The notes: a model not told the origin generated them from the sequence alone. Positions 2,852 to 55,025 are shown, counted from the stretch's first letter. The stretch: DNA of 64,000 nt from an uncultured Bacteroidales bacterium (GCA_937891975.1 CALAUA010000015.1:145378-209377), one strand, 5' to 3'. Translations and numbers: made by a program.

Positions 2852-3808
2852 ACTCCTCGCAAGCAGCTTCTCCGCCATTTGGCGCAGCTGTTCAGTAGCG
2901 GCATTTTGTGGCAGTGTATCTAGTATTTGCAAGGCTTTCTTGGTGTAATCTGCCACCACTTGTTCACATATCTCGCGCACGCCCAATTGCTCAAAAATCT
3001 CTTTTACGCGTGCAATCTTCTCTTTGTTGTCATCCAGCAATTTTCCATACCAATCTTCCAACTCTTCTCTTGCCTCTAGGCTTATCGCCTCATCACCTAA
3101 TAGCCTCATCGCCTGTAGATATACAAACGTCTTCTTGTTGCAGGCAATATCTCCACCTATGGCTTTACCAAAAGTCTTTGGGTCGCCCCATACATCCAAT
3201 ATGTCATCTTGTATCTGGAAAGCCAGTCCGATGTTGATACCGAACTGATATAGTGCTCTTTGTTCTTCTTCGGTTGCTCCAGCGATGTAGGCTCCTATCT
3301 GCAATGCATTGGCTAGTAATACCGATGTTTTTAGGCGAATCATCATCAGGTATTCATCGATGCTCACATTGTTTTCCTGTTCGAAGTCCACATCATATTG
3401 TTGTCCTTCGCAGATTTCGGTAGCCATCTGGTTAAATAGTTGCAGTACGCGCGCGAGCGTGTGTGTGGGTACCTTACTTAATTGTGTATAAGCTTCTATC
3501 ATCATCTGGTCGCCAGAGAGGATAGCGGTATTTTCGTTCCATTGTATGTGTACTGTTGGACGTCCGCGACGCACTTCTGCTTTGTCCATCACGTCATCGT
3601 GAAGTAGAGTGAAGTTGTGAAAAATCTCTAGTGCCAATGCTGCAGGCAATACGTCTTCATCTTTACCGCCGAACATTTGGCTAGCTATGATTGCCAACTG
3701 CGGACGCACACGCTTACCGCCTGCTGCTAATGTGTAGGCGATTGGTGCGTATAAGCCCTTGGGCTCACGATCCCAATTGAGTTGTAATATCTTGCTATTA
3801 ATATCCAT
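2846..3808 (-). CDS. Polyprenyl diphosphate synthase (trans-isoprenyl, IspB/GGPPS-like)
   Basis: ORF trimmed to MDINSK at 3808. Both Asp-rich motifs are present: LLHDDVMD and QIQDDILD. Confidence 0.85.
   Translation of the reverse strand: MDINSKILQLNWDREPKGLYAPIAYTLAAGGKRVRPQLAIIASQMFGGKDEDVLPAALALEIFHNFTLLHDDVMDKAEVRRGRPTVHIQWNENTAILSGDQMMIEAYTQLSKVPTHTLARVLQLFNQMATEICEGQQYDVDFEQENNVSIDEYLMMIRLKTSVLLANALQIGAYIAGATEEEQRALYQFGINIGLAFQIQDDILDVWGDPKTFGKAIGGDIACNKKTFVYLQAMRLLGDEAISLEAREELEDWYGKLLDDNKEKIARVKEIFEQLGVREICEQVVADYTKKALQILDTLPQNAATEQLRQMAEKLLARSV
3083..3114. repeat. Octamer word TCGCCTCA (A-word) inside the polyprenyl synthase CDS
   Basis: cttatcgcctcatcacctaatagcctcatcgcc, read in frame as MRLLGDEAIS. 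Confidence 0.8.
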
Positions 3809-3840
3809 ATCTCTAAACACTAAACTCGAAACACTAAACG
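3809..3840. repeat. B-word array filling the ddl / polyprenyl synthase junction
   Basis: atctctaaacactaaactcgaaacactaaacg. The ddl stop (3834-3836) lies inside it. Confidence 0.9.
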
Positions 3841-4955
3841 GTGAAATTGTCTTCCACAATTTCACTAAGCACCTGACCAATATTCAATCCTGCTGCGCGT
3901 ATTTGCTGCGGAATAAACGATGTTGCAGTCATACCTGGTGTAGTATTCACTTCTAGCAGATTAATTGTCCATCCTCCCTCTTCGCCTAATCGCCTCATCG
4001 CCTCATCGCCCTCTCGCCTCATCGCCTCATCGCCTGTCAATATATAATCCACGCGAATGATTCCCTTACATCCTAGTATATCGTATATTTTCAGTGTCAG
4101 AGCTTGCACCTCATCGCGCACGCTATCGGGGATACGTGCAGGGGTGATTTCTTCTACTTGTCCGTTGTATTTCGCATCGTAGTCAAAGAACTCGTTGCTT
4201 GTCACCACTTCGGTGATGGGAAAAGCTACGGCTTTGTTTTTAGTCTTGTACACACCGCATGTGATTTCTATGCCCTTCATCTCTGCCTCGCAAATCACCT
4301 CGTCGCCTTCGCCAAAGGCTTTTTCTATCGCGGGTACCACATCTTCCAGAGTCTTCACTTTGGTTACGCCAAACGACGACCCACCTACATTTGTTTTGAT
4401 AAAACATGGCAATCCTACTTGCTTAATAATATCTTCGCCTATCGCCTCATCGCCTAATTGCCTCATCGCCTCTTTGCGCAGCAAAACACTCTCCGCCACA
4501 TTCACACCAAATCCCTTCAGGTACTGGTTGCAGGTGTATTTGTTGAACGTCATGGCTGCAGCCAATACGCCGCAACAGGAGTAGGGTACTCCCACCATGT
4601 CCAAGTATCCTTGCAGCACACCGTTCTCGCCGGGTGTGCCGTGGATAGTGATATATGCAAAGTCAAATTGTATTTTTTCGCCCTTGTAGGTGTATGAGAA
4701 GTCGTTTTTGTCGATATCCACCCACTTTTCAGATTCTATAGGCACGGCACCATTGTGCTTTTCTATCTCTATATTGGTTTCCGCCAATGCGCGCCACTCT
4801 TTCCCACGCAAACAAACAATGGTCAAATCATAGTCATGCCTTGACTCCTGACTTGCGATTTCCGATAAAAACGAGTAGATCCCTGCTGCGCTGCGTAACG
4901 ACACTTCGTATTCCGAACTGTCCCCACCTGCTATGATAGCTATTTTGCGACGCAT
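3834..4955 (-). CDS. ddl: D-alanine--D-alanine ligase
   Basis: ORF trimmed to MRRKIAIIAGGDSSEYEVSLRSA at 4955, because the longer ORF would overlap the tRNA. ATP-grasp motifs: FIKTNVGGSSFGV, LEVNTTPGMT. Confidence 0.9.
   Translation of the reverse strand: MRRKIAIIAGGDSSEYEVSLRSAAGIYSFLSEIASQESRHDYDLTIVCLRGKEWRALAETNIEIEKHNGAVPIESEKWVDIDKNDFSYTYKGEKIQFDFAYITIHGTPGENGVLQGYLDMVGVPYSCCGVLAAAMTFNKYTCNQYLKGFGVNVAESVLLRKEAMRQLGDEAIGEDIIKQVGLPCFIKTNVGGSSFGVTKVKTLEDVVPAIEKAFGEGDEVICEAEMKGIEITCGVYKTKNKAVAFPITEVVTSNEFFDYDAKYNGQVEEITPARIPDSVRDEVQALTLKIYDILGCKGIIRVDYILTGDEAMRREGDEAMRRLGEEGGWTINLLEVNTTPGMTATSFIPQQIRAAGLNIGQVLSEIVEDNFTV
3981..4036. repeat. Seven tandem A-word octamers inside ddl
   Basis: ttcgcctaatcgcctcatcgcctcatcgccctctcgcctcatcgcctcatcgcctg encodes GDEAMRREGDEAMRRLGEE. 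Confidence 0.9.
4434..4473. repeat. Second A-word array inside ddl
   Basis: cttcgcctatcgcctcatcgcctaattgcctcatcgcctc encodes EAMRQLGDEAIGED. Confidence 0.85.
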
Positions 4956-4972
4956 AAGAAGTAAGAATTTTG

Positions 4973-5043
4973 TTGCCAAACTAGGACTCGAACCCAGACA
5001 GACAGAACCAGAATCTGTAGTGCTACCATTACACCATTTGGCA
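4973..5043 (-). tRNA. tRNA-Gln (anticodon CTG)
   Basis: The reverse complement folds as a cloverleaf. Acceptor TGCCAAA/TTTGGCA, anticodon stem ACAGA/TCTGT with loop TTCTGGT, T-arm GGGTTCGAGTCC. CCA is not encoded. Confidence 0.85.
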
Positions 5044-5087
5044 GTGATTATGTCTTCGTAAGACGCATGTCTTTCTCAAATCGGGCA

Positions 5088-5177
5088 CAAAATTACTGCT
5101 TTTTTATTACATATGCAAATAAATTTCACTTTTTTCGTCAAAATATTTGCGTGATTGCAAAAAAAGCAGTAATTTTG
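5088..5177. promoter_or_regulatory. Divergent promoter pair for tRNA-Gln and rplS
   Basis: CAAAATTA at 5088-5095 (minus) and TAATTTTG at 5170-5177 (plus). Both sit in the inverted copies aaaattactgctttttt / aaaaaagcagtaatttt. Confidence 0.55.
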
Positions 5178-5286
5178 CAGCCGATTTTCGACTATAGTCT
5201 CTGGCGATCAGCATAGAGCACGCTTTTTTGCGGCTTGAACAGTAGCGTATACTATAGTTACTTAACCCATTAAAAAACAAAAGAAA

Positions 5287-5640
5287 ATGGATTTAATGAA
5301 AATTGCCGAAGAGGCATTCGCTGGCGAGAAGAAAGAGTTTCCAGCATTCGCTGCAGGTGATCAAGTGACTGTAGCTTATCGTATTAAAGAGGGTAACAAG
5401 GAGCGTATTCAGGAGTTCCGCGGTGATGTTATTTGCATCCACGGTAGCGGTGATAAGAAGCGTTTCACTGTTCGTAAGATGTCTGGCAACGTAGGTGTTG
5501 AGCGTATCTTCCCTATGGATAGCCCATTCATCGAGAAAATTACTGTTAACAAGTACGGTAAAGTTCGTCGCTCTAAATTGTACTACTTGCGTGCACTCAC
5601 TGGTAAGAAAGCTCGTATTCCAGAGCGCCGCGTAAAGTAA
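5287..5640 (+). CDS. rplS: 50S ribosomal protein L19
   Basis: The 117-aa translation is typical L19 ([36 protein letters not shown]). Confidence 0.95.
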
Positions 5641-5674
5641 TCTTCGATTAGAACGCAATCGCGATTCAGCGAAT

Positions 5675-5708
5675 AAAATAGCCGAGGTCCCCCTCGGCTA
5701 TTTTATTG
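5675..5708 (+). terminator. Rho-independent terminator after rplS
   Basis: Stem gccgagg/cctcggc extended by aaaata/tatttt, followed by a T-run. Confidence 0.7.
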
Positions 5709-5749
5709 AATCATATACCTGTTGACACTGATTGTCATTATCCTCGAAT

Positions 5750-5788
5750 TGACCTTTAAAAACAACAGAGCCGAGAACTTCTCGGCTC
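5750..5788 (-). terminator. Rho-independent terminator for giant gene 1
   Basis: Stem gagccgag/ctcggctc (5768-5788), followed on the minus strand by tgttgtttt. Confidence 0.6.
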
Positions 5789-5800
5789 GTGTTATTGTTT

Positions 5801-5866
5801 ATCTACAGCCACTTTGTGGCGATCTACCATCTACAGGGCTTTAGCCCGATCTACAGCGCAGCGATC
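5801..5866. repeat. ATCTACAG word copies alternating with GC mini-hairpins
   Basis: atctacag-ccactttgtgg-cgatctacc-atctacag-ggctttagcc-cgatctacag-cgcagcg, immediately 3' of the giant gene 1 stop (5867-5869). Confidence 0.8.
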
Positions 5867-8800
5867 TTACAAGCGATGTCCCTGCGCGTCGAAAATGCCC
5901 TCCGCGGTACGGATGATGAGCTTACCGTCGATGAGGTATTTCTCAATGCCTTTCGCCTCATCGCCTACATTACCCACTCCTGTGGTCACATCCTTCTGTG
6001 GTTGGATATGGAGCGCAAAGCGATTCTCGTAACTACCAGCAGACAGAGTAATGGTATAATCGTCGAGCAAGAGGTTAGTGCGTGTATTTGTCTCGTAGTC
6101 AATGAGTTCTACCACCATACCCTCTGTGCCGTCAGGCATACGGAAGGTGTACTCACCTTCGGTGGCAATCTTCACGCCAACAGGCACGATAACCTCTTCC
6201 ATTGGTAATGTGTTACCCGCAAATGGGATGCCTTCAGACAATGTATAGATATTAGGTTTGCCGCTATTGAATACTTTGTTGAGGTCTTTGTTTTGGTCGA
6301 AGGTCGTTGTACCATCTTCATCTAAAGCTACAAATGTTTGGTCTTGCTTTTCGCCTTCTGTATTGGCAAGTTCGAGGCGCATGGTTACAGATGAACGTTC
6401 TGCTTGTGCTCTGCGAGGTGCCGCCAATGGTTCAGGCACCGTTTCATTGATAGGGTTCCAAGTAATAGTACCTGCAAACTGCACCATATAGCCGTAGAAG
6501 GATTTGTAGGTAGCAGTCTTACCATCTTCAGGAGTATAGTTATAACTTGTTCGGTTATTATTGTTGTCAAAAGTATAACTATATTGATAACGGAAACTTG
6601 GTGCTTCAGTTAATTCTTTATATTCTGGATCATTATCTTTATCATATTCTTTCACAGTCGCATTATTGTAACTGGTAGTACCAATCATCTTCCAGTTGCT
6701 ATCTTGCAAGTAGCGATTATGGAGAGTAAGAGTACATGGATGATTTGGGTAAGTGACAGTAAGTTGTTGCGTTGACTGCTGCTGCAAATCAAATCCACTA
6801 CCGATAGATGGGAAGTAGAGACGTAGCATAGAGATTATTTCTTTTTGTCCTTCTATAACATCGCCATTTGCATCAGTCTTATCCACTTCTATCTCATTCC
6901 ATGTGGCATTTTTCTTGTCAAATGCGAGCAGATATCCTTCACCTGCCTTCAACGTGTCCTTAGGAGACATCCACTCCCAGAATGTTGCCGTCTCTGCATA
7001 CCAACCCTTTTGAGCGCGAAGGTCACCGCGATAGCGTTGAATACCCCATAATTCCATATAACCATGCACACCAGATATACTACCTACCACGCAGTCAAAT
7101 GGTAAAGTGAACATATATTGCTCTTCATGACGTTCGTCTTCATTTGTACTACCACGGTGCAATTCCATTGCAAAGAATAGACTCTTTAAATTATTAATTT
7201 CACCATTGCCAGATAGTGTAATCTGTGGTACATTTTCATTCTCCTTGCGGATGAAAAGTACATCCGCATTTACTGTTTTATCTGTAGTAATAGTTAAGTC
7301 TGTTGCTATTTCCCAAACAGCTATGATTCGGTTCGTTTTGAAATCATACACTACGCGCACTTTATATACGCCATTATCCGTGCCCGAACCAATAACCGTT
7401 TTCTGAATAGGTGTGCTAGTTTCTTCGCCAGTTACTTCATTGATGCCGTAGCCCAATAAGTGGTTATACACAGTAGTATCAGTACGAGGTGATTTGGCTT
7501 CTACATACAGAGAAGCAGAAGGTGTTCCGTTGGTAATATTTACGTAAACATCTCGCTCATATACCCAGTTGCTGACATCGCGGAATTTATTGCCGTCATT
7601 ATTAGTATTGTTTCCGTATGGTAATTTTTTTGTACATTCCTTATCTGCATATGCATTGTCACAATGCAAATTGAGATAGCTTGCGTCTGCACTACCTTGC
7701 AGAACAGCTCGGCCGAAATAGTTGGTACGTGGGTCATAACCGAAGCGTACATTGATAACTTTACCTGTACCAACCTTGATATCGCCATATTCATTAGTAT
7801 TCTTATCTTGCAACAATTTGCCAGCTAGGTCATCGTTGTAGTCGTTTGCCACGCAGGCACTTACATCTTTACCATCGTAACCTCCAGAGTTCATAGCTTG
7901 TACCCAATAGTGGTTGTAGAACTCACCTTCGCGTGAAACAAATTCAGTGAATGTGCGGCTAGCTTTTTCGGAGTCTGTCCAATCATGAATAGAGTTCCAA
8001 CCCTTGTTGCTGATATCGCCATCTGTACCCCATGTACGGATGTAGAAGTTACCTGAATAAACTGCTACATTGGTAAGACCTGTACCATCTGCATTAAGTT
8101 TTGCTGTATAGACGTTTGACGCTGTGAATGTTTCAGGTGCGATTGTTGCATGCAAATTGCCGTTCTTATACAACATGACTACACCTGAACGGTAATTAAC
8201 TTCATCTTTACCAGGAGCAAAGAATGAGAGAATATCAGAGGTGCTGGTGACTATATTAGAAGAATACTCCTTACCATTTTGCATGACTATCTTCACTTGG
8301 TATTCATCTGCATCCTCCCAGCAATAATCGCCAGAACGTGAAATGGAAGGTTGATTCCCATATCCTTCATTTTTCATCGTATAACATCCATCTGTACTAA
8401 CATCTTTTACATCTGGTGATTTGCGCCAATTGTCATTCATGTTTTCATAAAACACCAAGAAACTTGTTTTTCCGTTAGTGTGTAATGGCACTTCCGCTTG
8501 TAGATATTTATACTTTCCAGACTCCTCATACACAAATTCCAATGCAATATCTGCATTATAACCAGAACTATACCAATAGTGTATCTTAATTTCGGAATTA
8601 TTGTTCCAACCAATATTGTCATATGTTCCTCCATCTGCTATTGGCACCTTCACTTGAATAGTGATGTGCGTATCTTTTTCTACGGTTACTTGGAATTTTT
8701 TGGTAACAGTTTCCTCGTGCAATGTGTAGTTCACAGTGATGGTGGTTGTGCCATCTTCGTGACCATATACGATGATGTTGGTTCCTGACATGATAGCTGT

Positions 8801-12904: not shown

Positions 12905-12975
12905 GATTTTTGTTATTTTAGTCTGTAGAATTTTAGTTTCACGCTTATTATGATGTTTTAGTATGCCTTTTATAC

Positions 12976-24900: not shown

Positions 24901-27897
24901 GAACATACAGATTACTATCTAGTAGGTTTGGATGGTGATTGGAGCCCTAAAGCAACAAACAAGTTTGTGGATGGGAAACTGAATATCAACCTCGAAGGAA
25001 ATGGTACAAAAGAATTTAAAATTATCAAGCAACAAGGTAATGCGCAAAAATGGCTGAGCAAACAGTTTACGTTCAAACCTACGGCTCTCACGACTTCGGG
25101 TATCACTGAGGATGGCGAAAATATGAAGATTGAGACGGTGCATAATGGCATTTACCAGTTTACGTGGAATAATGGTACGCTGACTGTGGCATATCCAGAC
25201 GTATGTTACTTGCATGGAGACTTTAATAGTTGGACAGATCACCCAAATCATGCGTTGCACAACAGAGATGCAAAAGTATTCTTGGAAGAGGGTGTTACGT
25301 ATGAGTTTAAAGTGGCAGAAAAGGGAGTATATCGTACACAGAGCGGCAACTTATGGGAAACTCCGATTACTTATACTGAGGGTGGCAAGACTATTATAAT
25401 GAATGATGCTACTTCTTATGACTCGGAACCACATCATAACTCCAAAATCACCGCTAATATGTCAGGATTCTACATCTTCCATTACGATGCAGAGACAAAG
25501 AAATTAACTATTTCCTTCCCTCTGGATGTAGACGACTATCGTTTAGCGTACAAAGATGATATTCATCCTTTCCACCCTGCAGGAATTTACATCAAACAAT
25601 GCACAAGTGGAGAACAATTGGATACAATAAGTTTCTTCGTACATCATGAGAAAAAACCGCTTATCATTTTACAACAATGCTTGTCAGTCACTGGAAACTC
25701 TGCAACATGGGAAACCGTTTGCACGTATGAAACCACCAAAAATTTAGAAACAAATATTGAAGGTCATGGCATAGATTCGACGGGTGTATTCAACTTTGTA
25801 TTGCAACAAACCAACGACCCTGAACATGCTGCTCAACTCTTGACAGAAGATGTACATCCATACACGGGCGACTACTACATCCGTACAAATGCAGCTCCAG
25901 GTAAGTGGGTGGAATTCCAGCAAGATGGCAACAAAATGACATACAGCAGTTATGCAGATAACAACGAGCCATTTAGCCACTACTTCTGTAAGTGGGTATC
26001 CACAGAAGCAGAAGCTGCAAATAATACAAATAATGTGAAATATACCATTGCCAATGACTATAGCTATTGCATATCCGACACTTTGGCTGCTGACCCAGAA
26101 GATGCAAGTCCTCGAATTGTGGCAAATGCAAGTGGTGATTTGCCTACCAATAGCGCAAACGTGCGCTTTGGTTGGGATTGGGGTACCAACCAACTTACAC
26201 GTGCATACATGGCAGGTGCTACTAATGCCACAGCGGCTACATTCTTACGAATAGAACAAGCAGAGGACTTGGAGAATAACGAAGGAGCGGCTGTAACAGA
26301 GATTAATTTTACAGACTTGCAAAACTGGATTTATCAAGTGGATGTGAGAGCCAAAAACACAACAACGATAAAACTGACTGCGCTGTATGCTGAGCATCTA
26401 CAATATTTCAAGGGTGATAAAGATAATAGCATGAGGTTGTTGTCGAGTGATGCAGCGGAGAATAAATGGTTTAATATGCGATTAACTTATGATTTCAAGA
26501 CGAACCACTTGATTATAGCTTGGTTACCTGATGATAAACCAATAGGGGGTGAGTTAGATGCAGATATGATGGTGATTCGTGAGCACAATAGGACTGGTGT
26601 ATCGGTTACTCAATTAAATTTGAATAATGCCTTGGAAAAGGTGAAAACAGTATATGCCGTGATGAGCTTTACACAAGATTGGATTAAGAAAAACTCGCGT
26701 GAGCAAAGCATCTACTGGGTATCCTTCCCATTTGATGTGAAACTCTCTGAGGCATTCGGATTCGGAGAGTATGCCGATGCGTGGATCATGCAATACTACG
26801 ATGGCGAAGAACGTGCTAAGAAGGGTTTATATGCAAACTCAGGTACCTATTGGAAGTATATCTTTGATCCAGAGACGATATTAAAGAAAGGTGTGGGTTA
26901 CGTATTGGTACTTGATCTAAATAAGGTTAAGTTTAATCATGGTGTAAATAGCGTTAGTCTCTATTTCCCATCCAATGGTGAGGTGGGTACGATTACGCAA
27001 GCGGAGGAGCCAAATGTCACAGTAGAGGTACCTGCTCACCAATGTAATTTAGGTGTAAGTACAACAGGTATGGATCATAATATTACGGACTCGCACTGGA
27101 ACCTCATTGGTGTACCTGCGTTCAAAGAAATTGACCAATTCAATGTTACGCAATACCATTATGACCAACAAGATGCTAGTTTCTACTATAAGTTCAATAC
27201 GAATTTGAGTAAGTACACTGTTATAAGTTCTACAAGTGTGACTTTCGAAGCAATGTATTCGTATATGGTACAGTTTGCTGGAACAATCAACTGGACAACC
27301 AAAACAGTTGAGGGTGTTACTCCTGCCCAACTCGCAGCACGTCGCAATAGCGAGAGTGAGTTGCCAGAGAAGGTAGTTCTGAACGTAGAGTTGCTTCAAG
27401 GTGAAGAGATGGCAGACCAAACTTTCGTACAACTGCAGCAAGAGGGCGCAACCGCTGACTTTGATATGAACCTCGACCTCACGAAGATTATCAATAGTGG
27501 TGCGAACATCTACACCCTCGCAGGCGAGCAACGTATCCAGTCTGCAGGTAATGCGCTGCCAATGGGCGAAGCCATTGTGCCAGTGGGTGTACAAATCGCT
27601 ACCGAAGGCGAATACACCTTCCGTATGCCTGACGGCACAGAGGGTGTGGTGGTAGAACTCATTGACTACGAGACCAATACGCGTACCAATCTTTTGCTTA
27701 GCGATTATATCGTCACCCTGCCAAAGGGCACAGAAGAAAATCGTTTTGCACTGCATATCCAACCTGAGAAGGATGTGACCACAGGAGTGGGTAATGTAGG
27801 CGATGAGGCGAAAGGCATTGAGAAATACCTCATCGACGGCAAACTCATCATCCGCACCGCAGAGGGTATCTTCGATGCGCAGGGACATAGGTTGTAA
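18904..27897 (+). CDS. Giant cell-surface protein with Listeria-Bacteroides (InlB B) repeats and a T9SS-like C-terminal tail
   Basis: Uninterrupted 2997-aa ORF. Leader is near-identical to giant gene 1. Canonical repeats such as YDGNGKTGGTVP...KAGYTHTGWNTKADGTGTHYDKGASYTL..STTLYAEW. The last ~100 aa are near-identical to giant gene 1. Confidence 0.9.
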   Translation: MNTTFTNYAEKKAKQILNLLQGYTKGIRITAILILLLMGVSNAWAWTAHFSLMGDPVGNNWQNDRDFMINTSTGTTDEWYIYAYVANNQYFALNNGSNQYGPSSNGQAIKNGTGGGQGNYNTNSWKFTGTSGIIKICCAESNDREWYPWVWVEESAPTIKFKHPWNGGSWSEQTATKQNDGTYTYDGKYGNNKGFNAGPSGKYKYNASQTTVEGSPATGDMCRFIWNPVGYVQGGAETKASGTFKIVKLCSLTYDGNGKTGGTVPSATNNQLYNTSITLSSETLTKAGYTHTGWNTKADGTGTHYDKGASYTLTAASTTLYAEWTSTAPTITISTEKTYLRTAYDKLILKIYYSNIPEGYTYRVHATPEAYFNGNENGDNVDRVSISGNGNTTFVSNGYLAQNQYTVEVILWNNGGATDIISNSLSITVEPQLSVQTRARFNNQINTTAAEHPQPEWVHPSQNVGETITASEPKPGYTFAGWTANDDNLIKFDNPNSLTTIVKSKVNGNNNAVAYANYTRVETYAFIQGRFRVNSASRNQMTYTYDDGGQWNEGSTNIQMEYDDTNSRFYLHTYMKPKELTEPHGTNCGECKPYFYIKTSTSSSSLTNATPYWSSSKQYIIEAGKENKKELTNSSSNVVNNNLRFNTQDESGYVILYFDQQYIWYELEHRLEYDANGGTGSAPSRTYHLKGSTTTTASDNIFTRDGYDFQGWNTKADGTGNQYEAEANITIEANTTLYAQWAKPTFTVTLDPQGGTDGTTSVEATYGEEMPEATMPQREGFTFGGYFTETNGGGTQYYNADGSSTKNWDIKEPKTLYAKWIQQYVIVGNGKGSWLNGANWIESVIADDSFDVTKQSSNIIDGSVTYSACPAGLKNFRIVPWGKWDTNHGKEQLTSCNVPSYTNEDNNIAFVTVAEAAITIGFDGTNITVQVDYDAEDLANVKAEVVADTKRMFYFGDELTDRSRQYLYVNELENSTDNHVVTETKGLLLEGVGAQKWLAVAILPPKTYNISNDANWGGVSTGEVVQAGAIYAWHGNQVMVKTAGTPPTLGDVSIRVGRANSGLTASAGGSSIGQAQTITDYYYKKEGESTWTKFDPNNVSALPVGIYKVHALAHDGNIYVRTAEPATLTIYDDYTITYKDQGGSAFTGAHEAGCPAIHLYGQTTELKSATKTGYEFGGWFTSPDCTGEPITTLGATDYTADITLYAKWTAKTYPVTLDQTGAKTPGTPSVTATYYAAMPHIETLPTPKDGYAFAGYYDQKDGAGTQYYDAEGASAHVWDKANDGILYAKWEAITYTITYHLNGGSGAANSTYTIESEDIILPTPTKAGHTFGGWYDNEGCTGEAITKIAQGSTGHKEYWAKWTINSYTILFGTEDGGTVSATVGGNAISSGTSLTYGTQVQLTATPEPGYSFSEWTNGSGNEVSTSNPYTVTIDGNITRNAVFIEATTLYLKPNADWLKDGARFAAYAFDGGEATWYDMEEVGCSGIYSCAIPGSYNKVIFGRMNPNKTENNFDNEVRWEQTIDLSIPTDGTNLFTVTNKPVGSNWNGEWESEPFNPLAYTITLEGEGGTIEITHEGGTATENTTVAPNTIITVALYPHSGYTVGTPKIKIGSNAAANLVVGQKYTICGPTTITANWVETKYAVAVNSNNNTYGTVSPSSVQVGQYTPSQKITATPKAGYRFVNWTATEGVSINSPIFESTTITASQAGTLTANFEKDPTVYLKPSAVWKKDGARFAVYWWKDTKNGWIDMTTVGCNDEYYTAELPAGVTNFKFVRLKPSGGHAFSNAWDQTIDLTLPTNANNLFAMKKLHLNIGEWNKDNQKCYAAHFYNSSNESKTINLTEGNDPMVYYCDIPTDKHYTNVVFYRVNPSNTGEIWHQTNDLTIDGDFYTITSFGGDGNKAEGTWTLQSIGEWLALPLPTITYTQPENGTIIVKTIRGVEIPSGTKVPWDTQVLVSVQPNTGYSVEYANIDIGGTQHDVQSGTPYTICGNTTISATMEEHTDYYLVGLDGDWSPKATNKFVDGKLNINLEGNGTKEFKIIKQQGNAQKWLSKQFTFKPTALTTSGITEDGENMKIETVHNGIYQFTWNNGTLTVAYPDVCYLHGDFNSWTDHPNHALHNRDAKVFLEEGVTYEFKVAEKGVYRTQSGNLWETPITYTEGGKTIIMNDATSYDSEPHHNSKITANMSGFYIFHYDAETKKLTISFPLDVDDYRLAYKDDIHPFHPAGIYIKQCTSGEQLDTISFFVHHEKKPLIILQQCLSVTGNSATWETVCTYETTKNLETNIEGHGIDSTGVFNFVLQQTNDPEHAAQLLTEDVHPYTGDYYIRTNAAPGKWVEFQQDGNKMTYSSYADNNEPFSHYFCKWVSTEAEAANNTNNVKYTIANDYSYCISDTLAADPEDASPRIVANASGDLPTNSANVRFGWDWGTNQLTRAYMAGATNATAATFLRIEQAEDLENNEGAAVTEINFTDLQNWIYQVDVRAKNTTTIKLTALYAEHLQYFKGDKDNSMRLLSSDAAENKWFNMRLTYDFKTNHLIIAWLPDDKPIGGELDADMMVIREHNRTGVSVTQLNLNNALEKVKTVYAVMSFTQDWIKKNSREQSIYWVSFPFDVKLSEAFGFGEYADAWIMQYYDGEERAKKGLYANSGTYWKYIFDPETILKKGVGYVLVLDLNKVKFNHGVNSVSLYFPSNGEVGTITQAEEPNVTVEVPAHQCNLGVSTTGMDHNITDSHWNLIGVPAFKEIDQFNVTQYHYDQQDASFYYKFNTNLSKYTVISSTSVTFEAMYSYMVQFAGTINWTTKTVEGVTPAQLAARRNSESELPEKVVLNVELLQGEEMADQTFVQLQQEGATADFDMNLDLTKIINSGANIYTLAGEQRIQSAGNALPMGEAIVPVGVQIATEGEYTFRMPDGTEGVVVELIDYETNTRTNLLLSDYIVTLPKGTEENRFALHIQPEKDVTTGVGNVGDEAKGIEKYLIDGKLIIRTAEGIFDAQGHRL

Positions 27898-44911: not shown

Positions 44912-44951
44912 CTTTTACATATGTTAGACAATTTTACGCCAAAGTAACGCG

Positions 44952-44959: not shown

Positions 44960-45063
44960 CAAAAAAAAAATGATATTACAAAATATCTTTGACTATTTAG
45001 TCAAAATATATTATAATCTGCGTAAAACACTTGGTTCCTATTGCTTGTATGATATATTTTGTT

Positions 45064-45071
45064 TACCTTTG
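45064..45071 (+). promoter_or_regulatory. -7 box TACCTTTG
   Basis: 31 nt upstream of the ATG at 45103. Confidence 0.5.
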
Positions 45072-45102
45072 CAAACAAATTTTCATATTGCCATTTATAA
45101 CC

Positions 45103-47111: not shown

Positions 47112-47118
47112 GTGACTA

Positions 47119-47916
47119 CTACTCTTTTCGGAAAATATCTTCGGGATATTCTACATGCGTGAGAAATAGCCCTTCAGCAGGGGCTGAGTCGCCTGCTGCG
47201 CAGCGGTTGTGCTGCGTGATGACCTCGGCAAACTGCTCCTTAGTCATCTTACCACGACCGACTTCAAACAATGTACCTACTACCGCACGCACCATATTAC
47301 GCAGAAAACGGTCAGCAGCGATAGTGAATACGGCGTGTCCGTTGCCCAATTCTTTCCACTCAGCACGCGTAAGGTCGCAAATCGTGGTCTTGACATCCGT
47401 ATTCGTGCGGCAGAAAGAAGCAAAATCCTGTTTGCCAATCAACAATTGTGCTGCCTCATTCATCGCTGCGAAGTCCAATCCTGGGCGTACACGCGTGGCT
47501 TGTGTACAAAGGAAAGGGTCTTTGTGATCAATGATATGATATTCGTATGTACGACGCACTGCATCAAAGCGTGCATGCGCATCATCCCTCACAGGGTAAA
47601 CATCAAAGACTGCGATAGAATCGGGCAAAATGCCGTTGAGGCGGAAGACCAAATTAGGGGGTATAGGACGCACTATTGGGCTATTGGACGGTGTTCCGCC
47701 TATTGGATATTGGCTATTGGGTAAATCAAAATGCGCATACATCTCGCGGGCATGTACACCTGCGTCGGTGCGACCAGCAAAAGTGAACGGTACCTCCTCA
47801 CGGAAAATCATAGCCAACGCCTGTTCCATAGTTTCCTGAACAGTCACGCCATTAGGCTGGCGTTGCGAGCCATGAAAGGCAGTACCATCATATGCAAAGC
47901 GGAGGAAATAGCGCAT
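47119..47916 (-). CDS. truA: tRNA pseudouridine(38-40) synthase TruA
   Basis: RYFLRFAYDGTAFHGSQRQPNG, AGRTDAGVHA, RFLRNMVRAVVGTL. Confidence 0.9.
   Translation of the reverse strand: MRYFLRFAYDGTAFHGSQRQPNGVTVQETMEQALAMIFREEVPFTFAGRTDAGVHAREMYAHFDLPNSQYPIGGTPSNSPIVRPIPPNLVFRLNGILPDSIAVFDVYPVRDDAHARFDAVRRTYEYHIIDHKDPFLCTQATRVRPGLDFAAMNEAAQLLIGKQDFASFCRTNTDVKTTICDLTRAEWKELGNGHAVFTIAADRFLRNMVRAVVGTLFEVGRGKMTKEQFAEVITQHNRCAAGDSAPAEGLFLTHVEYPEDIFRKE
47660..47721. repeat. D-word block inside the truA CDS
   Basis: ctattgggctattggacggtgttccgcctattggatattggctattgg encodes NSQYPIGGTPSNSPIV. Shares about 30 nt with the U32 insert. Confidence 0.85.
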
Positions 47917-47919
47917 GTT

Positions 47920-47957
47920 CTGTTTAGTGGACGCCCTAAAGGGCTACTGTTTAGTGA
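47920..47957. repeat. B-word / hairpin / B-word composite element (copy 3)
   Basis: ctgtttagtggac-gccc-taaa-gggc-tactgtttagtga. Fills the flippase / truA junction and encodes the flippase C-terminus ITKQ and its stop. Confidence 0.85.
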
Positions 47958-49461: not shown

Positions 49462-49464
49462 AAT

Positions 49465-50718
49465 CTACTTCTCGATTTCAAGCAACTCAACTTCGAAAAT
49501 AAGGGTAGAGTATGGAGGGATAGAACCTGCTTGTTGTGCGCCGTAACCCAACTCTTGTGGGATATAGAAGCGGAACTTGCTGCCAACAGGCATGAGTTGT
49601 ACGCCTTCGGTCCAACCTTTGATTACTTGGTTCAAACCAAATACGATAGGTTCGCCACGATCTACACTGCTGTCGAATACAGTACCGTCGATGAGGGTAC
49701 CATGATAGTGTACTTTAACGCGATCTGTAGCAGCAGGTTTTTTGCCTTTACCCATCTTGATTACCTCATATTGAAGACCACTCTCGGTAACTTTTACGCC
49801 TTCTTTGAGTGCGTTTTCAGCCAAGAACTTCTCACCATCTTCTTTCACAGTACCGTATTTGATATTGTTCATTGTTGTTTGGATATACTCGCCTGCTTGT
49901 TCGCCAGTCATGGTGGTGTCACCGAGTAAGCCGTTGATGAAACCTTGCTTGATAAGAGCAAAATCAGTAGCCAAACTTGGTTCGCCAATTAAGCCTTGAG
50001 CCTCTTGTGATTTGATGTTTTTACCGATTTGTTCACCCATATTTACGATTTGTGGATTTTTAACGGTACTCTTCAGACCTTTGTTGATATAGGTGATAAA
50101 ATCTTTAGTCATTTGCCCAGTAGTGTCCATGAGCAATACGTAGCGAGCTACTTCGTCACCATTAAGATAACCAAATGCGTAGTTGATACTATCGTTTTGG
50201 TTTTTCAATTCAATGGTCTTTACTTTGTAGATGCATTTGCCTTTTACGACTTTGCCCATCTCTAAGCTATCGTTGATGGTAGCAGAAGCTTGGTATTGTG
50301 CTTGGAAGTAGTTGCGTGCATCTTCTGCTTTCATCATAGTAGTGTCATGGCGTAAGCCGTTTACCAATCCTTGGAAGAACACTTTTTGGTTGATAGCCCA
50401 TGCAGGATTGTCTGCTAAACCAGTTTTCTCTGCGTTCTTGATAGCTTGACCAATATTTTTACCGATGTTAGCTGCTTCGCTCAATTCTTCTATTTTGCCA
50501 TCGTAACCACGTTGTAGTGCATCGATAAACTCAGTAATGGTTTCAATAGAAGAATCGTTGCGTAATTGATACATTTTCATTTGTGCACCATTCACTACGC
50601 CAAGAGCATAGTTCATACTGTCGTTTTGGTTAGTGAGGGCAACTTTTTCTATTTGATAAGTGTTGCCACATGAAATCATTGCCATTGCAGCAATGAGAAG
50701 AATAGATACTTTTTTCAT
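49465..50718 (-). CDS. FKBP-type peptidyl-prolyl isomerase lipoprotein with duplicated N-terminal domains
   Basis: ORF trimmed to MKKVSILLIAAMAMISC. C-terminus GLQYEVIKMGKG...VKVHYHGTLIDGTVFDSS...IPPYSTLIFEVELL. Confidence 0.8.
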   Translation of the reverse strand: MKKVSILLIAAMAMISCGNTYQIEKVALTNQNDSMNYALGVVNGAQMKMYQLRNDSSIETITEFIDALQRGYDGKIEELSEAANIGKNIGQAIKNAEKTGLADNPAWAINQKVFFQGLVNGLRHDTTMMKAEDARNYFQAQYQASATINDSLEMGKVVKGKCIYKVKTIELKNQNDSINYAFGYLNGDEVARYVLLMDTTGQMTKDFITYINKGLKSTVKNPQIVNMGEQIGKNIKSQEAQGLIGEPSLATDFALIKQGFINGLLGDTTMTGEQAGEYIQTTMNNIKYGTVKEDGEKFLAENALKEGVKVTESGLQYEVIKMGKGKKPAATDRVKVHYHGTLIDGTVFDSSVDRGEPIVFGLNQVIKGWTEGVQLMPVGSKFRFYIPQELGYGAQQAGSIPPYSTLIFEVELLEIEK

Positions 50719-50743
50719 TGTTAATTGTATATTTAGTTGATTA

Positions 50744-51328
50744 TTATTCAATTCCTAGCAACTCTACGGTGAAGATTAATGCTGCGTATGGAGGAATGTT
50801 GGCTCCTGCACCGCGCTCGCCGTATGCCAGTTGGTATGGCAAGTAGAGTTTGTATTTGCTACCGATAGACATGAGTTGCAGACCCTCTGTCCAACCTTTG
50901 ATGACTTGGTTGAGACCAAAAGTGATGCTCTCGCCGCGCTTGTAGCTGCTATCGAAGACAGTGCCATCGATGAGGGTACCTTCGTAGTGTACACGTACTT
51001 TGTCGGTTGCTTTAGGTTTTTGTCCGATAGTTGCTTCCAATACTTCGTATTGCAAACCGCTTTCGGTTACTTTCACACCTTCGCGCTTAGCGTTCTCTGC
51101 GAGGAATGCCTCGCCTGCTGCTTTGGCTTCGCCTGCGATTTTTGCTTCGAGTTCGCTAAAGAACTTACCCAACACTTGTTGAGCCTCTTGATAAGAAATT
51201 TGTGGTTGGTTTTTCTCTAATACATCTTTGATACCTGCTGCCAAATCAGCATATTCGAGGGAAGTAACGCCACTTCCCATCAGATTCTGACCCATGCTAA
51301 GGCCAATTGCATAACTAATTTTATCCAT
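50744..51328 (-). CDS. FKBP-type peptidyl-prolyl isomerase (FklB-like)
   Basis: GLQYEVLEATIG...VRVHYEGTLIDGTVFDSS...IPPYAALIFTVELL. Confidence 0.85.
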   Translation of the reverse strand: MDKISYAIGLSMGQNLMGSGVTSLEYADLAAGIKDVLEKNQPQISYQEAQQVLGKFFSELEAKIAGEAKAAGEAFLAENAKREGVKVTESGLQYEVLEATIGQKPKATDKVRVHYEGTLIDGTVFDSSYKRGESITFGLNQVIKGWTEGLQLMSIGSKYKLYLPYQLAYGERGAGANIPPYAALIFTVELLGIE

Positions 51329-51334
51329 TTCTTG

Positions 51335-51952
51335 TTATTGTATTAATTGATTCATTCTTGTGATATATTTGCCGATAATATCGAATTCAAGGTTCACTTG
51401 TGTACCCACCTGAATATACTTGAAATTGGTGTTGTCGTGGGTATAAGGAATAATACATACGCTTACATACCCCTTACCATCCTCCACATCGGGTTCGCAT
51501 ACGGTCAGACTCACGCCATTGATACTCACAGATCCCTTATCCACGCAGAAATAGCCACGCATAGCCATCTCACGGGTACTCTCATACTCAAAGCGGTAGT
51601 ACCAGCTGCCCTCTGTTTCTTTGACTTCGATGCAACGCGCCGTTTGGTCCACATGCCCTTGCACGATATGTCCGTCTAATCGTTCGCCGAGCAGCATGGA
51701 GCGTTCGAGGTTTACCCAATCGCCCTCTTTTGCTTCGCCGAGGTTGGTGCGGTTGAGTGTCTCTTGCATGGCGGTGACAGTGTAGAGGTCTCCCTCCATC
51801 TTTACTACAGTCAAGCATACGCCGTTGTGCGCGATAGACTGATCAATGCTCAGCGGCTCGCCATAGGGATTGCGCAGCGTGAAGTGTTTATTGGTTTGTT
51901 CTTGCTCAATCTTCACGATTTGAGCCATTGTTTCTACTATTCCTGAAAACAT
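51335..51952 (-). CDS. ribE: Riboflavin synthase alpha subunit
   Basis: MFSGIVETMAQIV, two lumazine-binding repeats (SIAHNGVCLTV / SVSINGVSLTV). Confidence 0.9.
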   Translation of the reverse strand: MFSGIVETMAQIVKIEQEQTNKHFTLRNPYGEPLSIDQSIAHNGVCLTVVKMEGDLYTVTAMQETLNRTNLGEAKEGDWVNLERSMLLGERLDGHIVQGHVDQTARCIEVKETEGSWYYRFEYESTREMAMRGYFCVDKGSVSINGVSLTVCEPDVEDGKGYVSVCIIPYTHDNTNFKYIQVGTQVNLEFDIIGKYITRMNQLIQ

Positions 51953-51954
51953 AG

Positions 51955-53469
51955 TTATTTCTTCTTAATGAGCGTCTTTCCATCCAAACGATAGAAGATG
52001 ACACAATATATAATAAGGAGTATAGTACCTATACCCATTTTCATCCATTCATTGATTGGCAATAAGTGTGCCAAAGTGTAATATTCTGCCAAAAGTGTCA
52101 CTACAAGTAGGGTATATATGCCAATTCGGCGCAAATCGTATGGTATCTCGAGGTGTTTGCGTCCCACGAGATAGGACAGTAGCATAATCACGAAATAGCA
52201 TATAGTACTGCTGGCTGCGGAAGCCATATATCCAATTCGTGGCACGAAAATAGCTTGCAATGCGAAGGTAATCACCACGCCGATGATGGAGAAGTAGGCG
52301 CCCCATTGCGTCTTGTCGGTGAGTTTGTACCAGAAGCTGAGGTTGAAATACACACCTTGGAAGATATATGTCCAGAGGACTACTGGTACGATTTTTAGTC
52401 CTTCCCAATAGGAAGGGGCGATGATAAACTTCAGTAGGTCGAGGTAGAAAATCATCCCCAAGAGAATCATGTAGGAGAAGATGATATAGTATTTCATTGC
52501 ATCTGCATAGGCAGCTACGGATTCGCGGTCTTTGTGTTTGGCAAAGACAAAGGGTTCGTAGGCGTAGCGGAATGCTTGGGTGAACATCATCATTACCATC
52601 GCCACTTTGAAGCAGGCTCCGTAGATACCTAACTGCGCTTGCGCATCGGCTCCGTCATAGAAGAAGGGGAAGAGGATACGGTCAAGCGTTTGGTTCATTA
52701 TACCGCACACCCCCAAGACCAAGAGGGGCAACGAGTAGCGAAGCATTCGCTTCAGCAATTTTCCTGAAAATAGTCGTCGGGAGTCGGAAGTCGGGAGTCC
52801 GTGCTCATTTTTAAAGCCCTCAACTATCGCTGGTAACAAACATAGTGTTTGTATGCCCGTAGCCAAGATATTTGCCACGAAGACATACCCTACTCCATAG
52901 TTGGGATTGTACCATGAGGAGATGATTGCCCAATCCTGAATCTTCGGACAAAGTACGAGGAAGAAGAGATTGAGGGCGATATTGAGGAATACGAATAGGA
53001 GTTTGAGTGCCGCAAATTGCAAAGGGCGTTTCTTGTAGCGCAAGTATGCAAATGGAATACTAGCGAAGGCATCCATTGCCACTACTATACCGAGCAGTGC
53101 GATGAACTCGCTGTGCGTAGGGTATCCCAATGCGGTGGCAATAGGCATTTGCCATATCACACATGCTACGGCGAACAGTAAAGAGGTAGTAAAAAGCGTA
53201 ATGAGCGAAGTTCTATAAACCGTCTTAGGATTTTCTTCGGTTTTGTTGGCAAAGCGGAAGAAACCCGTTTCCATACCGTAGGTGAGAATCACTAGCAATA
53301 GTGCTGTCCACGCATAGAGGTTGGTCACGATACCATAATCTGACTGCTGTTGCAGCACGTATGTGTACAGCGGAACGAGCAGCCAGTTGAGAAACTTGCC
53401 TACAATGGATGAGACGCCATAAATGGCGGTTTCTTTAGCCAATATTTTCATTTGCAGATTACTGCTCAT
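51955..53469 (-). CDS. MOP-superfamily flippase / polysaccharide biosynthesis protein
   Basis: 504-aa polytopic membrane protein with a Wzx/MurJ-like N-terminus. Confidence 0.65.
   Translation of the reverse strand: MSSNLQMKILAKETAIYGVSSIVGKFLNWLLVPLYTYVLQQQSDYGIVTNLYAWTALLLVILTYGMETGFFRFANKTEENPKTVYRTSLITLFTTSLLFAVACVIWQMPIATALGYPTHSEFIALLGIVVAMDAFASIPFAYLRYKKRPLQFAALKLLFVFLNIALNLFFLVLCPKIQDWAIISSWYNPNYGVGYVFVANILATGIQTLCLLPAIVEGFKNEHGLPTSDSRRLFSGKLLKRMLRYSLPLLVLGVCGIMNQTLDRILFPFFYDGADAQAQLGIYGACFKVAMVMMMFTQAFRYAYEPFVFAKHKDRESVAAYADAMKYYIIFSYMILLGMIFYLDLLKFIIAPSYWEGLKIVPVVLWTYIFQGVYFNLSFWYKLTDKTQWGAYFSIIGVVITFALQAIFVPRIGYMASAASSTICYFVIMLLSYLVGRKHLEIPYDLRRIGIYTLLVVTLLAEYYTLAHLLPINEWMKMGIGTILLIIYCVIFYRLDGKTLIKKK
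52774..52800. repeat. E-word heptamers inside the flippase CDS
   Basis: tcgtcgggagtcggaagtcgggagtcc encodes GLPTSDSRR in a predicted loop. Confidence 0.8.
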
Positions 53470-53475
53470 ATCTCA

Positions 53476-53509
53476 CTATCTTCGGGGTATCTTCGGGATA
53501 TCTTCAGGA
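53476..53509. repeat. 11-nt word array GTATCTTCGGG (H-word) at the rsmI / flippase junction
   Basis: ctatcttcggggtatcttcgggatatcttcagga. The same word opens the composite repeats at 14329 and 18834. Confidence 0.9.
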
Positions 53510-53513
53510 TAAA

Positions 53514-54185
53514 TTACTTTTCGTTTTTGCCTTCCACAACAAGTACAATTTCGCCTTTGGGTGGGGTCTGCTTGTAGTGCGCTGCTAACTCAAGCAGGGT
53601 GCCGCGTTGGGTGTCTTCGTGCAGTTTGCTGATCTCGCGGCTGACGCTTGCTCGGCGTTCGCCGCCCATCACCTCTGCCAATTGCTCTAAGGTCTTCACC
53701 AGTCGGAAGGGCGATTCGTAGATAATCATCGTATGTGTCTGCTCGGCAAGAATCTTCATGCGAGTTTGGCGGCCTTTTTTCTGTGGGAGAAATCCCTCGA
53801 AATAGAATCGGTCGTTGGGCAAGCCCGAATCAACTAATGCGGGCACGAAGGCCGTTGCTCCAGGCAGACATTGCACTTCTACACCTTTTTCTACGCAGGC
53901 ACGCACCAGCATAAACCCTGGGTCGGAGATACAGGGTGTACCTGCATCGGAGATAAGTGCCACGGTCATGCCCGCAGCAATACGTTCCGCCATATCATCG
54001 CTCGTTTCATGTTCGTTGAACTTATGATGGCTTTTGAGCGGCGTATGGATGTCGTAATGCTTGAGCAGCACGGATGAGGTGCGAGTGTCTTCAGCAAGAA
54101 TGAGGTCCACCTCTTTCAGTACGCGGAGCGCACGAAAAGTGATGTCCTCAAGATTGCCAACGGGTGTAGGTACTATGTATAACAT
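53514..54185 (-). CDS. rsmI: 16S rRNA (cytidine1402-2'-O)-methyltransferase RsmI
   Basis: LYIVPTPVGNLEDITFRALRVLKEVDLILAEDTR, SDAGTPCISDPG. Confidence 0.9.
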   Translation of the reverse strand: MLYIVPTPVGNLEDITFRALRVLKEVDLILAEDTRTSSVLLKHYDIHTPLKSHHKFNEHETSDDMAERIAAGMTVALISDAGTPCISDPGFMLVRACVEKGVEVQCLPGATAFVPALVDSGLPNDRFYFEGFLPQKKGRQTRMKILAEQTHTMIIYESPFRLVKTLEQLAEVMGGERRASVSREISKLHEDTQRGTLLELAAHYKQTPPKGEIVLVVEGKNEK

Positions 54186-54191
54186 GTTTTT

Positions 54192-54236
54192 TCTCTAAAC
54201 ACTAAACAGTAGCGCTGAAAGCGCGTTCACTAAACG
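54192..54236. repeat. B-word / hairpin / B-word composite element (copy 4)
   Basis: tctctaaacactaaacagta-gcgc-tgaaa-gcgc-gttcactaaacg. Fills the junction upstream of rsmI. Confidence 0.85.
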
Positions 54237-55025
54237 TTACGCGAAGCGTCTCTTGAGTACGTTCTCGAAGAGTTGTACTGCGGTGGACTCTTTGTCCCAA
54301 TCGAAGTTGTCGAGCACGTAGTCCATCGCCTCGTTGAGTGAACCGAGATTGTTAATTTCATCCAATGTTTTTTGCATCAACTCACCATTGCCTGCAAAGA
54401 GTTCGCGTTGAAAGAGGAAACGGTCCCCCAAAGAGATAGCTTGGCGGATATCCTCTACTGCCGCACCAAACAACGATGTTTGTTGTGGCACAGGACGTGG
54501 AGCAGGTTGTGGAGCAGGTGCTGGCTCTACCACTGGCTCTGCCTTTACTTCTGGTTGTGGAGCAGGTTCCACGATTGGTTCCACCACTGGCTCTGCCGTT
54601 GCTTCTGGTTGTGGAGCAGGTGCTGGCGCTACAACTGGTTCTTCTACAACCGGTGCTTCTACCTCTGGAGTATCTATAATATCCAGCGTTTCTAGTTCTT
54701 CTTTAACTTCCTCTTGTGGTTTTTCTGCGGGCTCTTCAGCGAACTCGTTTTCAATTGTCACCTCTTCGTTTTCACTTTCAGTTTCTTCTTCAACGATGAG
54801 TTCGATCTCTACTTCTGGTTCTGCAGCTTGTGCAGCTACAGCACCTGTAGCTGCCAATGCAGCCACTTCGGCTTGCAAGGTTGCTATTAGGGCTTTCGCC
54901 TCATCGCCTTCTCGCCTCATTGCCTCATTGGCTTCTTCGAGTTGCGCCACACGCGCCTCCAGAGCAGAGAGTTTCTGCTCCAGAGCGGTCGTGTAGTTGG
55001 TTATTGCTTGAATAAGATTGTTCAT
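54237..55025 (-). CDS. Hypothetical protein: coiled coil + acidic / Pro-rich EPVVEP repeats + C-terminal globular domain
   Basis: 262-aa ORF. Low-complexity centre PAPAPQPEATAEPVVEPIVEPAPQPEVKAEPVVEPAPAPQPAP. Confidence 0.5.
   Translation of the reverse strand: MNNLIQAITNYTTALEQKLSALEARVAQLEEANEAMRREGDEAKALIATLQAEVAALAATGAVAAQAAEPEVEIELIVEEETESENEEVTIENEFAEEPAEKPQEEVKEELETLDIIDTPEVEAPVVEEPVVAPAPAPQPEATAEPVVEPIVEPAPQPEVKAEPVVEPAPAPQPAPRPVPQQTSLFGAAVEDIRQAISLGDRFLFQRELFAGNGELMQKTLDEINNLGSLNEAMDYVLDNFDWDKESTAVQLFENVLKRRFA
54896..54932. repeat. A-word octamers inside the CDS
   Basis: ttcgcctcatcgccttctcgcctcattgcctcattgg encodes NEAMRREGDEAK. Confidence 0.8.

Follow-up and report, generated by a model that had tools for sequence, protein, structure and literature searches.

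Rickettsia palindromic elements (RPE) are palindromes of ∼100 to 150 bp that are inserted as units and read in frame at tolerant surface positions of conserved proteins. Long simple sequence repeats, which have units of 5 to 11 nucleotides (nt) and include the STRR heptamers of cyanobacteria, were described by Mrazek, Guo and Shah (2007, as cited in PMC4679880); in the summary of Mrazek's work given by MacGregor (2015, PMC4679880), repeats with units that are a multiple of three are the likeliest to lie within genes. The heptamers GGGAATC of Xanthomonas and GGGGA(C/T)T of Nostoc are 89 to 93% intergenic (Rehm et al. 2015, PMC4692102). TAACTGA heptamers, present in Beggiatoaceae, cyanobacteria and some Bacteroidetes, contain stops in the forward direction and are open in reverse, which governs their placement relative to genes (MacGregor 2015, PMC4679880). 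Here, we analyzed a 64,000-nt stretch of DNA from an uncultured Bacteroidales bacterium (GCA_937891975.1, CALAUA010000015.1:145378-209377; the whole stretch is called the window), which lies on contig C15 of the assembly and in which a 12-nt word, GGCGATGAGGCG, recurs within genes. An earlier note on this stretch had claimed that the word always encodes G-D-E-A and keeps its orientation relative to the gene, not to the chromosome, and had offered coupling of insertion to the direction of transcription or translation as one explanation. The observation is real yet overstated, and the mechanistic reading of orientation coupling is unsupported. Instead, the frame pattern depends on stop codons, both orientations are used, and the arrays to which the word belongs turn over at fixed loops.

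The repeat fits the class of dispersed tandem repeats except for the description "mainly non-coding." Its kind is known, but the setting, mostly within coding sequence, is unusual. Like RPE, it is repeated DNA translated in frame in conserved proteins; unlike RPE, it forms tandem repeats of 15 to 56 nt without a palindrome, the arrays being direct repeats of variable length. It shares with long simple sequence repeats, so far as the cited account describes them, head-to-tail units of 7 to 9 nt, many short dispersed arrays, lineage-specific words and a presumed origin by slippage. However, in that account non-triplet units are mainly extragenic, whereas here 26 of 28 loci are genic and read through, and 7- and 9-mers among the octamers bring the arrays to lengths that preserve the frame. 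As in the Xanthomonas and Nostoc heptamers, the units are G-rich and strand asymmetric, few per array, and frequently placed between co-directional genes (PMC4692102); those heptamers occupy hundreds of dispersed loci and carry GGG or GGGG tracts that form G-quadruplexes, whereas the present unit has GG only and is mostly coding. The stop argument made for TAACTGA matches the one made below, but TAACTGA is mostly intergenic, just upstream of start codons, (PMC4679880), while the arrays described here are found within housekeeping genes, in either orientation. The repeat is not of the G-quadruplex type (judged from the sequence alone, GGCGATGA, its unit, has GG runs only, where at least four runs of at least three G would be expected), nor is it a phase-variation locus (the orthologous arrays compared were all in frame and differed by multiples of 3 nt) or an RPE-like palindrome. 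A literature search for in-frame repeats in Paludibacteraceae, the family of the relatives considered here, found nothing.

A dispersed octamer repeat in coding DNA

The window contains eight exact copies of GGCGATGAGGCG, against 0.00 expected from dinucleotide-preserving shuffles, and 13 copies with at most one mismatch (0.13 expected). Across the whole assembly (2.07 Mb, 44% G+C), 35 exact copies are dispersed over 28 loci, against ∼0.2 expected; the repeat is real and chance occurrence is excluded. Because the matches in ddl are spaced 8 nt apart, GGCGATGAGGCG is not a free-standing 12-mer but spans one unit and a half of an octamer repeated in tandem, GGCGATGA. Two to seven units of 7 to 9 nt stand head to tail in each array, with matches at 8-nt steps, and arrays that mix 7-, 8- and 9-nt units lie in frame within loops of ordinary genes. 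Arrays of at least four units number 88 in the genome and 11 in a reversed-sequence control. Non-triplet units are thus not mainly outside coding regions here, since 26 of the 28 GGCGATGAGGCG loci and 66 of 89 arrays in the broader set are inside genes. The hosts include the housekeeping genes ddl, valS, dxs, recQ and murC.

Other repeated words are also abundant in this genome. Its commonest 12- to 16-mers belong to CTAAACA/CTAAACT heptamer arrays (CTAAACACTAAA, 138 copies), which have stops on both strands and are located at gene junctions; one of them lies in the window at 3834-3860, at the junction of ddl and the polyprenyl synthase gene. GTACCTTTGCA, the promoter-like motif of Bacteroidota, likewise ranks among the most frequent words.

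Stop codons, reading frames and orientation

Genes were called with our own caller, which combines open reading frames with a codon score (1575 genes, 90% coding). On these calls, the 35 words of the genome read GDEA (18), (E)AMRR (4) or, in the third sense frame, R-TGA (0), and in the antisense direction ASSP (8), (S)PHR (3) or RLIA (0); two are intergenic. The five open frames are therefore used unevenly (chi-square against uniform use, P ∼ 6 × 10−6, an overstated value, as tandem words are non-independent). When tandem words were merged and a paralogous copy in a giant gene was dropped, the independent loci comprised 17 sense, 9 antisense and 2 intergenic (17 versus 9, binomial P = 0.17). 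Antisense words read IASSP or SPHRL, and their hosts were confirmed by Pfam: an OmpR-type response regulator with two arrays, serine dehydratase, DsbD, a GT1 glycosyltransferase, a radical SAM/SPASM protein, a metallophosphoesterase and a DUF4922 protein. A corresponding census of four word-rich relatives (G034, G037, G041 and G056; 60 loci fetched) gave coding words reading GDEA (25), AMRR (13), ASSP (18), PHRL (3) and RLIA (0), that is, 38 sense and 21 antisense (n = 59), together with ∼18 non-coding words. The earlier note had held that equal use of both orientations and of all stop-free frames genome-wide would refute its pattern: both orientations are indeed used, but the stop-free frames are unequal.

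The inequality of the frames follows the stop codons of the repeat. The 12-mer is open in five of its six frames, and the remaining sense frame, which contains TGA, is never used by any word. Two full units leave a single open sense frame (GGC GAT GAG GCG ATG A..) and three units leave none. Therefore, a sense array of three or more octamers needs a TGA-less unit at each third position, or a 7-mer, as in the 8 + 7 = 15-nt solution read GDEAK-G. The AMRR frame is closed by the next unit in 17 of the 35 words. In keeping with the position of TGA, the consensus unit occupies 30 of 43 phase 0 positions and 12 of 33 phase 2 positions of sense arrays but none of the 21 in phase 1, the TGA phase, where units end in TTA, GAA, AAA, GAG or CAA instead. 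On the opposite strand the consensus, TCATCGCC, is stop-free with all frames open (cyclic peptide PHRLIASS), and it is the variant units (xTTA, xTCA, GGCTAT..) that give TAA, TGA or TAG. The orders U-U-GGCTATTA and U-U-GGCGATTA, where U is the consensus unit, close the antisense RLIA register, and xTTA or xTCA variants were found in 0 of 24 antisense S-S-P units (TCA TCG CC). Because variants close RLIA and are barred from the S-S-P unit, exact GGCGATGAGGCG, which needs an intact unit, reads (I)ASSP and never RLIA.

We then shuffled the units within each array of at least four units. The translated strand of sense arrays was open in 42 of 42 cases, against 34.9 expected (P < 0.0005), whereas the untranslated G-rich strand of antisense arrays was open in 20 of 24 (18.9 expected; P = 0.38) and intergenic arrays in 10 of 23 (10.2 expected). 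A stop-avoiding order confined to the translated strand is a signature of purifying selection. These data uphold the other explanation that the earlier note had offered, purifying filtering of the remaining frames: the TGA frame is unused, two units leave GDEA only, and the stop-avoiding order appears on the translated strand only. For the same reason, an intrinsic three-unit (24-nt) superstructure was rejected as a general feature; suspicion of it had come from a U-U-variant order in antisense arrays and in one intergenic array. Separately, a non-coding array in a relative (L127, G034:C15:27650-27730) has a 24-nt higher-order period, GGCGATGA GGCGATGA GGCGAGAA nearly three times over, with a GC-rich hairpin directly after it; as this array shows, 24-nt duplication can also happen outside genes. 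Codon usage was rejected as the cause of the frame pattern, given that besides GDEA it predicts RLIA at 22%, with AMRR and ASSP at 1 to 2%, unlike the counts. It expects 0.21 words in all coding DNA, and codons of the arrays are rare (AGG 1.3 and CGA 4.2 per 1000 codons).

Window arrays and their turnover among relatives

All exact copies of GGCGATGAGGCG in the window are sense. Seven are on the minus strand (3991, 3999, 4015, 4023, 4443, 5954 and 54897) and one is on the plus strand (27799); six read GDEA, as had been claimed for every occurrence, but two read (E)AMRR. Both exceptions are in the first of two arrays in ddl (minus strand, 3979-4034), which consists of seven octamers (U U GGCGAGAG U U GGCGATTA GGCGAAGA) and is translated as GDEAMRREGDEAMRRLGEE. 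Its four overlapping exact words divide into two GDEA and two (E)AMRR because the 8-nt step shifts the frame. The second ddl array (minus strand, 4432-4470), GGCGATGA GGCAATTA GGCGATGA GGCGATA GGCGAAGA, reads EAMRQLGDEAIGE and has one exact word in GDEA. The polyprenyl synthase gene (Pfam PF00348) had been listed as a carrier of the word, which it does not contain in exact form: its array (minus strand, 3082-3113) has four units, GGCGATGA GGCTATTA GGTGATGA GGCGATAA, read QAMRLLGDEAIS, and both of its copies, at 3086-3097 (GGTGATGAGGCG) and 3102-3113 (GGCGATGAGGCT), have one mismatch. In the word-rich clade this segment reads EAMRRLGDEA.. or EAKRRGGERLE, and in other relatives it is a non-repeat A-D-x-x of similar length.

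The remaining arrays are in two giant genes and in a gene of 262 amino acids. Giant gene 1 has a short array of the 8 + 7 type, GGCGATGA GGCGAAAG, near its C terminus (minus strand, 5950-5965), read GDEAKG, and giant gene 2 has the same short array and reading on the plus strand (27799-27814). GGCGATGAGGCG is at the identical position of a C-terminal segment common to both genes, no Pfam family was found in the C-terminal segments of either, and their DNA identity rises from ∼0.5 upstream to 0.72 to 0.89 over the last ∼400 nt, with the final ∼45 residues identical. The common segments span 5867-6260 and 27500-27897, and the preceding 1100 nt align at ∼50%. By this sequence comparison, the array in giant gene 2 is a copy of the event in giant gene 1 and not independent. 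The only plus-strand case in the window is thus a paralogue, and therefore it gives no independent evidence that orientation follows the gene. The 262-amino-acid gene, for which a Pfam search gave no match, has four units, GGCAATGA GGCGAGAA GGCGATGA GGCGAAAG, at 54893-54924 on the minus strand, read NEAMRREGDEAKA, and the array is kept in its orthologues in G034 and G041 (loci L123 and L163). The window therefore has five independent array loci, all on the minus strand. The claim that orientation is kept relative to the gene holds for the window copies, which are all sense, but it loses its sole plus-strand case to paralogy and fails genome-wide, where 9 of 26 coding loci are antisense.

Site 1 of ddl is a hairpin loop just upstream of the segment LLEVNTTPG, and in E. 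coli DdlB part of the array 1 segment is missing as a gap of 17 residues. In an AlphaFold2 model of Ddl (mean predicted local distance difference test [pLDDT] score of 82), array 1 corresponds to residues 308 to 326, with pLDDT below 50, between strands 299 to 307 and 330 to 337, and array 2 to residues 162 to 174, with pLDDT of ∼69. In the model, the ddl arrays lie in a low-confidence hairpin loop.

Comparison across the genus showed what else can occupy these sites. Judged by ddl similarity, the relatives of this bacterium are Paludibacteraceae metagenome-assembled genomes from ruminant guts. GGCGATGAGGCG is clade limited, with 25 to 78 copies in ∼17 of 61 sampled genus genomes and 0 to 4 in most others; the backwards control word has 0 to 1 copies per genome. 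The octamer is one member of a wider set of G-rich 7- to 9-nt units (GGCGAAA, GGCGAGA, GGCTATTA, GGTTAAA and others), and this set is abundant in a single clade of the genus. Across the genus, ddl sites 1 and 2 hold an array of the present octamer, AGGCGAA/AGGTTAG heptamers, (AATGGAC)5, C-rich CCAATAT-type arrays, which represent the opposite orientation of the GGCTATT family, a GTTTAGAG-hairpin element, or nothing, and the occupant is in frame every time. Site 2 is occupied in relatives by AGGCGAA/AGGTTAG heptamers or by C-rich arrays of the CCAATAT type, or it has no array. At site 1, where many relatives lack an array, that of this genome (G000) equals that of one relative (L031) plus one 24-nt block. 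The ddl genes of G007, G008 and G014 (L002, L003 and L005) carry at site 1, equivalent to 3979-4034, an in-frame composite element, GTTTAGAG-GAC-[GC hairpin]-TAC-AG-GAC-[GC hairpin]-TAC-AGTTTAGAG, read SLEDGTKCLQDGCAYSLE.

Two loops of the response-regulator gene behave in the same way, and a given loop of a given gene can hold arrays that are G-rich in sense in one species but arrays of the opposite, C-rich orientation in another. We compared this genome more closely with G013, in which the first 16 of the 28 loci were searched by concatenated flanks and 12 were alignable. While the flanks were mostly 90 to 97% identical, only 3 of the 12 arrays were identical and 1 had point changes; the rest were replaced by another word family, non-repeat sequence or nothing. 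At recQ, where this genome has a sense array of the present octamer, the orthologous locus of G013 (L195, orthologous to G000 C3:39093) contains a longer C-rich element in which GCGTCCAATAGC blocks are repeated. Some arrays are conserved between species. By these comparisons, the arrays are fast-evolving occupants of limited tolerant loops. In the same pair of genomes, the response-regulator protein (L172) is 99% identical and Ddl (L004) is 84% identical, a contrast that suggests mosaic relatedness through recombination between species.

Copying of multi-unit blocks from locus to locus was rejected, since sharing of three-unit runs between loci was not above the unit-shuffle expectation (P = 0.10). 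The only blocks longer than 24 nt common to different loci are those of the giant-gene paralogues and one 32-mer. The latter, TAGGCGATGAGGCGATAGGGCTATCAGGCAAT, is identical in the response-regulator and DsbD genes (C13:164435-164466 and C19:30338-30369, outside the window), where each copy lies antisense and reads LPDSPIASSP; a near copy is in a metallophosphoesterase gene. It may be a copied block, although the unit-shuffle test was not significant (P = 0.10).

How the arrays may arise and persist

We consider it likely that the arrays are a dispersed tandem octamer, (GGCGATGA)n, which turns over at the DNA level and is filtered in genes by stops and frame. Arrays would arise and turn over as DNA in either orientation, at intergenic sites but above all in a limited number of tolerant surface loops of ordinary proteins. 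A genic array would survive only if its length kept the frame, as three octamers (24 nt), 8 + 7 (15 nt) or three heptamers (21 nt) do, and if its reading had no stop. On the G-rich strand, TGA would kill one frame and each third unit would have to be TGA-less, yielding GDEAMRR(E/L) or GDEAK(G); on the opposite strand, where the consensus is open, variants would shut RLIA and be banned from the S-S-P unit, yielding (I)ASSP. Arrays would grow in steps of 24 nt, through slippage or duplication, and out-of-frame or stop-bearing variants would be purged. The single-frame look of the window is then due to the stop in the unit, the shortness of the arrays and one paralogous duplication.

Several points weigh against this explanation. 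The gene calls are home-made, and the Pfam check covered only the antisense hosts and two window genes. The counts from relatives include arrays orthologous to those of this genome and are thus non-independent, and the evidence for the frame pattern rests on a small number of independent loci. The array sequence is itself a product of selection in its frame, so that "only one frame open" is partly circular, a circularity that the shuffle test lessens but does not remove. In antisense arrays, two stop-free registers exist for the variant unit, yet it is always in the P-x-x register (7 cases) and never in L-I-A (0), where it would be silent; these numbers are small and some of the arrays are related. 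Finally, stops alone predict no fewer antisense than sense arrays, because consensus arrays are fully open in antisense, and yet sense arrays are about twice as common (42 versus 24 among arrays of at least four units, P = 0.036; 31 versus 17 among arrays with an exact unit, P = 0.06). The filter does not account for two points: the placement of the variant unit in antisense arrays and a modest sense excess that non-coding arrays share.

The sense excess bears on two alternatives. Intergenic arrays between co-directional genes have the G-rich strand in sense in a like ratio (15 versus 7; Fisher P = 0.80 against coding arrays), and therefore translation does not account for the excess, which may come from an asymmetry between the strands in how repeats form or from nucleation on ordinary G-D-E and A-D-E codon strings. 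A DNA-strand bias unrelated to translation, in which repeats form asymmetrically in connection with transcription or replication and the G-rich strand is favored as the non-template strand ∼2:1 in and between genes, would account for the indistinguishable coding and intergenic ratios. We nevertheless think it unlikely as the explanation, as the bias is weak (P = 0.036, and P = 0.17 for the 12-mer loci), is reversed in G037 (9 antisense versus 4 sense words), and has no counterpart in the Xanthomonas heptamers (Rehm 2015, PMC4692102). A replication-strand explanation was not retained, the leading and lagging strands being unassignable from the noisy GC skew of the large contigs, which goes with gene direction.

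It is possible, although on balance we doubt it, that arrays are instead seeded in register, starting on word-like coding sequence and then expanding or converting, so that the frame and much of the sense excess are inherited from codon strings such as GGC GAT GAG (G-D-E) and GCN GAY GAR (A-D-E); such seeding could also act alongside the stop filter. Isolated GGCGAT hexamers in genes fit this proposal (708 sense versus 370 antisense, with 72% of the sense ones in the GDEA register), as do isolated octamers, which divide between the GDEA and AMRR registers (62 versus 19) much like the sense array words of all genomes (43:17). Relatives without an array at ddl site 1 read T-G-E/D-K/Q there (GGC GAG CAG, GGC GAC AAG or GGC GAG AAG), which is 7/9 identical to GGCGATGAG in the same frame, and array-free relatives at the polyprenyl synthase site have GCT GAT GAT GCC or GCT GAT GAA GAA, also in the same frame. 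However, these are two anecdotal sites without control loops, and relatives that lack the response-regulator arrays show no seed in those loops. Isolated antisense octamers favor the RLIA register (18 of 20), which arrays avoid and never use, and codon usage predicts AMRR for 1% and ASSP for 2% of words, far under what is observed. A stronger version is that an active, sequence-directed process keeps the fixed loops repetitive by rewriting them with the 7- to 8-nt word family that is current in the genome, nucleating on word-like codon strings so that the seed itself sets the frame and filtering is not its only source. Ectopic conversion between arrays and templated repair are candidate routes, but we regard the proposal as speculative and improbable.

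Insertion coupled to the direction of transcription or translation would place the word always in sense and in one frame, as the window copies suggest (all sense, six of eight in GDEA). The wider census makes this highly improbable: 9 of 26 independent coding loci, in Pfam-confirmed hosts, and 21 of 59 coding words in relatives (38 being sense) are antisense, two loci here and ∼18 words in relatives are non-coding, the plus-strand window case is a paralogue, and the same loop is oppositely oriented between species. Nor do we give much credence to the idea that the peptide itself (GDEA.. or IASSP) is the selected, functional motif and the DNA repeat secondary. In its favor, some arrays are conserved between species, and antisense L-I-A-S-S-P is constant while the adjoining two residues vary (NS, DS, DR, HS or HR). 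Yet the word is found in either orientation and also outside coding DNA, its hosts are unrelated enzymes, its codons include rare ones (AGG, CGA), the loop is of low confidence, and close relatives have unrelated words or nothing in its place.

The outcome is mainly a correction, in that there is no gene-relative orientation rule. Beyond that correction, non-triplet tandem repeats are usually described as intergenic, and here they are mostly translated in essential enzymes. The same few loops are occupied across species, with words or orientation swapped between genomes whose flanks are 90 to 97% identical, and the arrays thus provide a natural data set of insertions tolerated by proteins. They also make a case for asking how one short word reaches dozens of loci. 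If the rewriting process proposed above were true, it would make these arrays tiny, gene-less spreading DNA inside essential genes.

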